The notes: generated by a model not told the origin, from the letters alone. 24,431 nt of DNA from a virus (IMGVR_UViG_2663762939_000013); one strand, 5' to 3'; counted from the first letter of the stretch, positions 21,878 through 24,431 are shown. Translations and numbers: made by a program.

Positions 21878-23825
21878 ATGGCAGAGCAAACCTCGCGTCT
21901 CGCAATAATTATTGATAGCACTGGAGCAAAAAATAATGCTGACAATCTGACCTCCTCATTAGTCAAAATGACGCAGGCCGGGGAAACTGCTGCAAATAGC
22001 GCAGGGAAAGTGACTAAGGCAACAGAAGATGAGAAGAACGCGCTCGCAAAATTAAAAGCAGCTATTGATCCAGTTGGTGCCGCAATTGATACTGTCGGTC
22101 GACGCTATTCTGAATTAAAGAAATTTTTCGATAAAGGGCTTATTGATAAAGAAGAATATGAATTTCTTGTCCGTAAACTTAATGAAACCACAGAGGAATT
22201 GAGCGGGGTTGCGCAAGCGCAGAGAGAAGCCGAGAAGGCCGGAAAACTTGCTGCCGCCCAGCAGGAAGCGCAGACTCAGGCCTTTCAAAGAATGCTGGAC
22301 AAGATCGACCCTCTGGCTGCGGCGCTAAGAAATCTTGAACAACAGCAGGATGAACTTAATGCTGCGTTTGCATCCGGGAAAATAAATGGTTCTCAGTTTG
22401 AGAATTATAGCCGAAAAATACAGGAAACACGGCGAGAGCTTACCGGAGAGGCTCAGGCAGAGCGAGAAGCAGCAAAAGCGCATGATGAACAGGTTGCTGC
22501 TTTGCAACGTCTGATTGCTCAACTTGACCCTGTCGGAACTGCTTTTAATCGTCTGGTAGAACAACAGAAACAGCTCAATGAAGCAAAAGCTAAGGGGATG
22601 CTCTCTCCTGAAATGTATGAGGAACTTTCTGGAAAACTTCGTGCTATGCGGAGTGAGCTTGAGGTTACTCAATCTCAATTAAGCAAAACCGGAATGTCGG
22701 CAAAACAAACGGCTTTTGCTATGCGCATGTTGCCTGCACAAATGACGGATATTGTTGTTGGGTTGTCCACTGGTCAGTCGCCTTTTATGGTGTTAATGCA
22801 GCAGGGCGGCCAGCTAAAAGATATGTTCGGTGGGATTGGCCCGGCGATCAAAGGTGTTGGTTCTTATGTGCTGGGATTAATTAATCCTTTTACCCTGGCC
22901 GCAGCAGCCGTTGGCGTCTTAGGGCTGGCTTACTATAAAGGCTCTCAGGAGCAGGACGAATTTAATAAGTCTCTTATTCTTACCGGAAATCAGTTGGGGA
23001 CAACCAGCGGGCAATTGGCCGATATAGTTCAACGTGCCGGGAATGCGGCTGATTCGACAACTGGCGCTGCGGCGGCAGTATTAAACCAGCTTGTGCGTTC
23101 GGGAAAGGTAGCGAGCAGTTCGCTGGAGCAAGTGACGACAGCGATAGTAAAAACGAGCGAAGTAACAGGAATATCAACCGAACAACTGGTTAATGACTTC
23201 AATGAAATTGCAAAGGATCCTGTCAGTGCCATATCAAAACTTAATGATCAGTACCATTTTCTGACAATTGCGACTTATAACCAGATTAAGGCGCTACAGG
23301 ATGAAGGGAACCAGCAGGAGGCCGCCCGCATTGCGACAGAAGCATACTCATCCTCAATGATCCAGCGCACCAACCAGATTAAAGAAAATCTTGGTTATCT
23401 TGAGACTGCATGGAAAGCTGTCGCAGACTCCGCAAAATGGGCATGGGATTCCATGCTGGATATTGGCCGTGAGGCCTCCCTTGATCAAAAAATCTCAGAT
23501 GTTCTCCGTCAAATTGATGAAATAGAAAAAAATACCCGACCCGGAGTTTTCGGGTTAGGTGGCATTGGAGATGGCGGAGCTCAAAATAAAAGGCTGGCAC
23601 GATTAAAGCAGCAATTGGGCGTACTTCAAGCAGAAAAAATTGCTCAGGACGTACTAAATTCATCAATAAACGATTACAACAAGCGACAACAGGAAGGAAT
23701 TGAACTCAGACAGAGAGCAGATGCCTTTTCAAAACAATATCAGACCCGGGAGCAGCAGAGAGCTAGTGAACTTGCAAAACTGGAAAAACTAAAGAGTCAG
23801 TATTCAAAGGAAGAATATAATAATC
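21878..23825 (+). pseudogene. Tail tape measure protein gene, first about 649 codons, interrupted or truncated by an IS3-family element
   Basis: Long alpha-helical A/Q/E/K-rich N-terminus, a hydrophobic segment ([33 protein letters not shown]), position after the G/GT chaperones; reading frame runs into the IS terminal repeat at 23826. Confidence 0.8.
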
Positions 23826-24431
23826 TGAACCGCCCCGGGTTTCCTGGAGAGTGTTTTATCTGTGAACTCAGGCTGCCAGATCATCGTTTCCGATGGAAGC
23901 ATAATAAGCTTTTTCTGCTTCTGCCGGAGGAGTATGGCCCAGCCTTTCCAGCAATCGTCGATTGTTATACCAGTCCACCCACGTGAGTGTGGCCAGTTCC
24001 ACTTCTGCACGGTTTTTCCAGCTCTTACGGTGTATTACCTCCGCTTTGTAAAGACCATTGATGCTCTCAGCCATCGCGTTGTCATACGAGTCGCCTGTAC
24101 TTCCTGTTGATGCCAGTAATCCGGCTTCCTTAAGCCGCTGTGTGTAGGCCAGCGATACATACTGAGAACCTTTATCACTGTGATGGACCGTGCCGGACGG
24201 TCGACGGGCCCATAACGCCTGCTCCAGTGCATCCAGCACGAATGTCGTTTCCATGGACGATGAGACCCGCCACCCCACGATGTATCCGGCAAACACATCA
24301 ATGATGAACGCCACATAGACGAAGCCCCGCCATGTGCTGACGTAAGTAAAATCAGCCACCCACAGCTGGTCAGGTCGTTCTGCCACGAACTGACGGTTTA
24401 CGCGGTCGCCTGCGGCAACGGCTTTCCGGCT
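23826..24431 (-). mobile_element. IS3-family insertion sequence (IS629/IS1203/IS3411-like), partial; continues beyond window end
   Basis: Begins TGAACCGCCCCGGGTTTCCTGGAGAGTGTTTTATCTGTGAACTCAGGCTGCCAG, which I recall as the IS629-group terminal repeat; adjacent minus-strand ORF is the C-terminal part of an IS3-family OrfB transposase. Confidence 0.8.
23868..24431 (-). CDS. IS3-family transposase OrfB, C-terminal part (N-terminus outside window)
   Basis: ...[42 protein letters not shown]...[56 protein letters not shown]... contains the DDE integrase-core pattern of IS3-family transposases. Confidence 0.85.

Follow-up and report, generated by a model that had tools for sequence, protein, structure and literature searches.

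The stretch of DNA analysed here (hereafter the window; 24,431 bp, IMGVR_UViG_2663762939_000013) belongs to a Rac-like prophage of Escherichia coli, integrated beside ttcA, and matches scaffold KQ088931.1 of the E. coli assembly GCA_001032735.1 (locus L004) with 100% identity over the shared 12,554 bp. Alignment with the same prophage of strain TUM1226 (locus L006), to which the window is 99.96% identical as far as position 23826, resolved it into the blocks listed in Table 1. The rightmost of these blocks ends within a tape measure protein (TMP) gene, at the point where an IS629 copy begins.

Table 1. Features of the window and, where aligned, their counterparts in the prophage of strain TUM1226 (L006).
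Feature	Window position	Strand	Position in L006	Basis
intR to ydaE	1-6005		6001-12005	alignment with TUM1226
IS5	6003-7200		18519-19716	alignment with TUM1226
Middle of trkG through head genes	7201-17720		27343-37862	alignment with TUM1226
1331-bp element	17721-19051		no match	alignment with TUM1226
Remaining head-tail genes and tail genes to the TMP junction	19052-23826		37858-42632	alignment with TUM1226
TMP 5' fragment (codons 1-649 and base 1 of codon 650 of the 1077-codon allele)	21878-23825	+		ORF list; Pfam TMP_2; mapping to the intact gene in L006
Chimeric ORF (649 TMP residues and 53 residues from the IS629 end)	21878-23986	+		ORF list; exact-protein match
AATC, left copy of the 4-bp repeat flanking the IS (TMP nt 1945-1948)	23822-23825	+		sequence read; mapping
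IS629 terminal inverted repeat, orfB-proximal end, TGAACCGCCCCGGGTTTCCTGGAGA	23826-23850	.		sequence read; six other loci
First 606 bp of the 1310-bp IS629, transposase antisense to TMP	23826-24431	-		identity with L004/L005
IS629 OrfB, C-terminal 187 codons, DDE transposase catalytic domain	23868-24431	-		Pfam; ORF list

Two further insertion sequences lie upstream of the TMP gene. The IS5 copy, delimited by its own ends GGAAGGTGCGAATAAG and CTTGTTCGCACCTTCC, occupies 1195 bp (6006-7200) and has unmatched 4-bp flanks, CTTA and ATAG (flanks 5990-6005 and 7201-7215). Relative to TUM1226, 15.3 kb are missing at this point, a segment with kilR, genes for immunity, replication and lysis, and the 5' portion of trkG. 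Since TUM1226 carries an IS5 within the missing interval, the copy in the window may have been retained after deletions on both sides. The 1331-bp element without a counterpart in TUM1226 is IS2, being 100% identical to copies named 'IS3-like element IS2' by PGAP; the insertion, flanked by a 5-bp target duplication, disrupts a head-tail gene of 127 aa. The window contains two IS3-family elements, this IS2 and the IS629 copy, which are unrelated to each other. Past the window end, a Y1 (IS200/IS605-type) transposase gene located after lom and before the tail-fibre gene (L004 21755-22050, L005 21170-21628) is the fourth IS of the prophage.

In the ORF list of the window, the chimeric ORF encodes a product of 702 aa, with a Pfam TMP_2 domain (PF06791) at residues 267-471 (E = 6e-81). 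Through position 23825 its sequence is that of the intact TMP allele of TUM1226, without any difference; the latter is uninterrupted, 3234 nt long (L006 40684-43917) and encodes 1077 aa, and exactly this protein is recorded on 344 contigs. The left flank of the IS corresponds to nt 1909-1948 of the intact gene as mapped in L006, the final TMP base before the IS being nt 1948, with which codon 650 begins. Beyond this base the TMP frame reads 53 codons into the IS, antisense to its transposase, and meets a stop at 23984-23986. The 702-aa chimera has a GenBank entry of its own (KME64545.1, 'hypothetical protein SM09_04126'), the final 53 residues of which are the antisense translation of IS629; this 'protein' therefore results from the annotation of a TMP pseudogene whose frame continues into antisense IS, and is an artefact. 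An exact-protein look-up recovered it from only two contigs of the same lineage, KQ088931.1 and the contig of assembly GCA_964050845.1 (locus L005). A previous reading of the window, made from sequence only, had recognized a TMP gene here, and the TMP_2 domain, the position in the tail module and the identity of the N-terminal 649 residues with the 1077-aa allele all agree with it. The same reading had placed the cut at codon 650 and the IS terminal repeat at 23826, both of which proved exact, and had considered a product of about 650 aa probably incomplete, as borne out by the 649 of 1077 codons present before the IS.

The IS end that begins at 23826 is TGAACCGCCCC; from this position the sequence reads TGAACCGCCCCGGGTTTCCTGGAGA, preceded by TMP sequence ...GAAGAATATAATAATC. 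The first bases of TGAACCGCCCCGGGTTTCCTGGAGA open the same IS after unrelated flanks in six other E. coli loci, and the start of the IS is therefore set at 23826 and the final TMP base at 23825. The terminal repeats are of the 5'-TG...CA-3' type, with TGAACCGCCCCGGGTTTCCTGGAGA at this end and ...TCTCCAGGATTCCCGGGGCGGTTCA at the far end in both L004 and L005, and TGAACCGCCCCGGGTTTCCTGGAGA agrees with the inverted opposite end, TGAACCGCCCCGGGAATCCTGGAGA, at 23 of 25 positions. From the orfA and orfB genes of IS629, the orfB C-terminus alone falls within the window, where a minus-strand ORF of 172 aa with a GTG start (23868-24386) lies in a frame that remains open to the window end; translation of 23868-24431 (minus strand) gave Pfam matches to rve (E = 2.2e-28), rve_3 and rve_2. 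The 606 IS bases of the window are at least 99% identical to thousands of E. coli IS copies and equal to those of L005 apart from one SNP. In L005, the complete IS consists of 1310 bp (11949-13258) and encodes proteins of 108 aa (HTH_Tnp_1) and 295 aa (HTH_21, rve, rve_3). It contains an ALIL frameshift pseudoknot (RF01497) scoring 120 bits vs the gathering score of 50, and PGAP marks a 'programmed frameshift' on identical IS copies. The element is 99.5% identical over 100% of the length to mobile elements labelled 'IS3 family IS629' by their depositors (LC567824.1 and LC567828.1), which lie in the Stx2a phage Stx2_499 and in PPompW_EH2201. Copies for which PGAP gives the name 'IS3-like element IS629 family transposase' are likewise 99.5% identical to it, and the copy in AF017626.1 is 100% identical. 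Judged by its sequence, the element is IS629 of the IS3 family (IS3 group), with each testable defining feature present except for the target duplication, which the 99-bp gap makes ambiguous. The initial assignment to an IS3-family, IS629-like element thus stands, now on a full copy of 1310 bp with 99.5% identity to depositor-annotated IS629.

The window end coincides with the start of a run of 913 N in L004, inside the IS, and the window therefore stops at a scaffold gap within this element. The same region is gap-free in L005, a contig of 4.6 Mb, which differs from L004 by one SNP over 21 kb; past the gap, the two are 100% identical for a further 8.6 kb. Given this near-identity on both sides of the gap, L004 and L005 represent one lineage, and all evidence on the sequence past the window comes from this lineage in its two near-identical assemblies. 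In L005, TMP resumes after the IS at codon 682 of the 1077-aa allele and reaches its normal stop. The domains encoded downstream of the IS are a Tape_meas_lam_C fragment, Phage_min_tail, Phage_tail_L, NLPC_P60, Lambda_tail_I, gpJ domains and Ail_Lom; the tail genes past the IS are homologues of lambda M, L, K, I and J, followed by lom, and all are intact. The distal tail genes are thus retained, not deleted. Of the two outcomes between which the sequence-only reading could not decide from the window, namely a simple insertion or a loss of the distal tail genes, the second is excluded by the resumption of TMP and the presence of the tail genes, and the first holds only in part, as 95 bp are gone and the insertion is not a textbook simple one.

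The two signatures of the TMP family are both present, TMP_2 (PF06791) before the IS and Tape_meas_lam_C (PF09718) on the fragment past it, and the gene occupies its usual place in the tail module, between ydaY/tail tube and chaperone genes on one side and the gpM/L/K/I/J homologues on the other (L001, L004, L005 and L006). An uninterrupted frame is absent: 649 of 1077 codons precede the IS, codons 650-681 are missing, and codons 682-1077 are displaced by 1310 bp. The TMP gene of the window is a pseudogene of the lambda gpH-like TMP family, in which domain content and synteny are preserved and completeness alone is wanting. Since the gene is broken, no length-determining function is expected of it. 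The loss of 15.3 kb at IS5 and the IS2 in the head-tail gene make the TMP disruption one of at least three IS lesions in a prophage unable to make particles. Tail length is therefore not at stake, and the earlier remark that TMP length sets tail length has no functional consequence in this already defective prophage.

At the IS, the left flank extends to TMP nt 1948 and the right flank begins with nt 2044, and the intervening nt 1949-2043 (95 bp; codons 650-681) are absent; the insertion is therefore not a plain, clean one. The IS is nevertheless bounded by AATC on both sides, the right copy directly following its far end, outside the window (TMP nt 2044-2047). In the intact TMP gene the two AATC sites lie at a distance of 99 bp from each other. 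The missing segment and one repeat together make exactly 99 bp (33 codons), and the loss is therefore in frame; the flanks are the equivalent of a 4-bp target duplication combined with a 99-bp loss. The check proposed for the sequence past 24431 accordingly gave a divided answer: the other IS end and the continuation of the TMP frame were found as anticipated, and a matching 4-bp flank was found as well, at a second site of the intact gene. Simple insertions elsewhere have target duplications of 3 bp (GAT in L001 and in a further locus, L003; ATC in locus L008), and an author-annotated IS629 copy has a 4-bp duplication, CCAG. In a survey of O157 genomes, IS629 duplications were of 3-4 bp, with matching flanks at just 21 of 47 copies (PMC3271280). 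Taken as a whole, the structure, in which IS629 splits the TMP gene of a Rac-like cryptic prophage near ttcA, with 95 bp absent, AATC on both flanks and the tail genes following, is highly probable.

How the 95 bp came to be missing is a matter of lower probability. In the reading that we prefer, and whose probability we place somewhat short of even, IS629 would have inserted with an AATC target duplication at codon 649/650 or at codon 682/683, and the 99 bp between the duplicate and the other genomic AATC would then have been removed by a deletion bounded by microhomology and anchored to the end of the IS. The loss could have been caused by a transposase nick at the IS end, followed by slippage or end-joining. 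This route is in line with the 3-4 bp duplications habitual for IS629 and with the finding of an IS-free deleted allele nowhere. Published work on the IS629 transposase and the IEE protein shows that together they yield deletions, and that IEE can join ends on microhomologies of at least 4 nt, 4 nt being the shortest microhomology extended in biochemical assays, which gives a microhomology route some background plausibility. However, the published IEE/IS629 deletions remove the IS itself, and this work gives no established mechanism for a loss confined to the flank that keeps the IS. Moreover, a match between two 4-bp flanks occurs by chance about once in 256 in unbiased sequence and would be likelier in this AT-rich stretch. 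No intermediate with the IS at either AATC site and the 99 bp still present was found. In particular, in the exact-protein look-up the left chimera occurred solely together with the deletion, and the hypothetical 735-aa chimera of an insertion at the second AATC ('site 2') was absent. The right junction had no further carrier among complete genomes, the exact junction 41-mer had no match in GTDB representative genomes, and the IS end sequence had no match in the full text of papers.

The principal alternative, which we regard as rather unlikely, is that the IS deleted its own flank by transposase chemistry or with a second copy, the AATC match being a coincidence. Such a loss could arise if one IS end attacked a nearby target intramolecularly (adjacent deletion), through a tandem (IS)2 intermediate, or by homologous recombination between two IS629 copies about 95 bp apart; in a further variant, the locus derives from an insertion of the WP7-S18-ESBL-09 type at nt 2011-2013, nibbled on both sides. 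Comparable configurations exist in the same gene of other strains. In E28 (L002), the IS in the same orientation is flanked by nt 1921 on the left and by a position within gpJ on the right, with 4.2 kb lost; in MS 196-1 (L007), likewise in the same orientation, an IS identical to that of the window lineage has rearranged flanks, joining ydaU to TMP nt 1390, with 26.9 kb lost; and in Z1323CEC0004 (L009), a 95%-identical IS variant is present after TMP nt 1836 as two tandem copies, one of them truncated. Over half of the O157 IS629 copies are without matching flanks (PMC3271280). The IS629 of WP7-S18-ESBL-09 (L001, NZ_AP022207.1) interrupts the same TMP gene in the same orientation, 65 bp downstream of the left junction of the window and hence between its two junctions, and is annotated by PGAP as a split TMP with an 'IS3 family transposase'; unlike the window copy, it is a clean insertion with the 3-bp GAT duplication and without loss, after which TMP resumes.

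A flank identity of 4 bp is nevertheless unexpected under all of these routes, and derivation from an ancestor of the WP7-S18-ESBL-09 type would take two events, as both flanks have changed. In addition, the IS allele of WP7-S18-ESBL-09, which is identical to that of E28, differs from the IS of the window lineage at 21 clustered positions, although gene conversion could explain this. Because the IS alleles differ at these positions, the window insertion is probably independent of those in WP7-S18-ESBL-09 and E28, an assessment that gene conversion between IS copies could blur. A common ancestry with them was considered and not adopted in view of the 21 differences, the identity of the IS with the MS 196-1 copy and its own 4-bp flanking repeat.

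Still less probable is that IS629 made a simple insertion, duplicating the 4-bp AATC, in an existing TMP allele of 1044 aa that already lacked the 33 codons, so that the IS itself deleted nothing. The perfect 4-bp direct repeat formed by the flanks, within the 3-4 bp habit of IS629, and the exact in-frame 99 bp made up by the missing segment and one repeat would both follow from it. However, the insertion would have had to hit the very joint left by an earlier deletion, and this joint was not encountered in an IS-free form in the collections covered. A 50-mer across it (...GAATATAATAATCAACAGAATGCG...), designed to be unable to seed on the normal allele and paired with a positive-control 50-mer of normal TMP sequence, had 0 matches in 5,426 complete E. 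coli genomes, 615 of which carry the control. The 50-mer pair was used in place of a 600-nt reconstructed empty site, which proved unable to isolate the deleted allele: the 60 of 727 records that were listed for it all consisted of two pieces spanning 699 bp, i.e. the normal allele. The metagenome and GTDB contig collections likewise contained no IS-free joint GAATATAATAATCAACAGAATGCGTTAC, and the exact 1044-aa product did not occur in a collection of 15 billion proteins. Finally, an assembly artefact, in which the short-read scaffold bridged two unrelated IS629-ended contigs so that the 3' part of TMP and the tail genes are not truly adjacent, is suggested by the end of the window in a scaffold gap within a multi-copy repeat, but is extremely improbable, as the independent gap-free contig L005, identical over 21 kb apart from one SNP, has both junctions around a single 1310-bp IS.

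The insertion has counterparts nearby in other strains of E. coli, where at least five distinct IS arrangements lie in or next to the stretch of about 210 bp at TMP nt 1836-2047 (window 23713-23825 and beyond), counted over loci L001, L002, L003, L007, L008 and L009. They comprise two IS629 alleles, the tandem 95% variant and ISKpn26, the last found in the same TMP stretch of GDSC2239PM and FDAARGOS_1249, and several are accompanied by one-sided multi-kb deletions. In the tandem locus (L009, NZ_CP148483.1, 6315-8800), two 95%-identical IS629-like copies, arranged head to tail, bridge TMP nt 1836 and the gpK homologue. The first copy is truncated at IS position 1177 and abuts the full one, an arrangement reminiscent of a tandem (IS)2 structure in decay. 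The stretch at nt 1836-2047 is the lowest-GC part of the gene (37-39%) and may be a landing zone for IS, the clustering being partly one of ascertainment, since the survey query detects junctions near nt 1743-2960 only.

Returning to the preferred reading, that is, insertion with an AATC duplication followed by a microhomology-bounded loss, a more general interpretation can be offered as an unlikely conjecture. The AATC...AATC arrangement with its in-frame 99-bp loss could be the footprint of an unestablished side reaction of IS629, coupled with the recurrent use of the low-GC TMP stretch as an IS landing zone in Rac-like prophages. In such a reaction, repair of a transposase nick or break at the IS end would make use of a 4-nt microhomology in the adjacent DNA, and the flank would be trimmed with the IS kept, mirroring excision of the IEE type.

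IS629 is among the best-catalogued insertion sequences of E. coli, and the inactivation of tail genes by IS is routine in cryptic prophages. The sequence itself was already public in GenBank, with the chimeric ORF annotated as a hypothetical protein. An IS629 in a prophage TMP gene is a known kind of event, part of ordinary prophage decay and nothing new in kind; IS629 in prophage genes is the rule and not the exception (PMC3271280). What the analysis settles is the continuation of the gene, with the distal tail genes kept and 95 bp of TMP lost. The one minor peculiarity is that the in-frame loss is bounded by AATC and lies next to an IS that was kept, a point relevant to the side reactions of IS3-family elements.

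Compared with the catalogued IS629 (isoforms IS1203 and IS3411) of E. coli O157:H7 and Stx phages, the element shares the length of 1310 bp, the TGAACCGCCCCGGG... ends, the OrfA/OrfB layout with its -1 frameshift and ALIL pseudoknot, the 99.5% identity to author-annotated copies, and a location in a prophage, as is the case for 62% of O157 copies (PMC3271280). It differs in its host, here a non-Stx Rac-like prophage, and in its flanks, which, with 95 bp missing between them, depart from the plain duplication of an unbroken target. The interrupted gene shares with the lambda gpH-type TMPs an N-terminal TMP_2 and a C-terminal Tape_meas_lam_C domain and the gene order of tube, chaperone-like genes, TMP, then M, L, K, I and J; unlike them, the gene of the window lineage is broken. 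With Rac of K-12 and its fuller relatives at the ttcA site, the prophage shares intR, xisR, ralR, recT, recE, ydaE, trkG and ydaY, as well as the lambda-like tail module that comes after these genes. Its morphogenesis module is preserved to a far greater extent than that of K-12 Rac, and the prophage carries its own set of IS5, IS2 and IS629 lesions.
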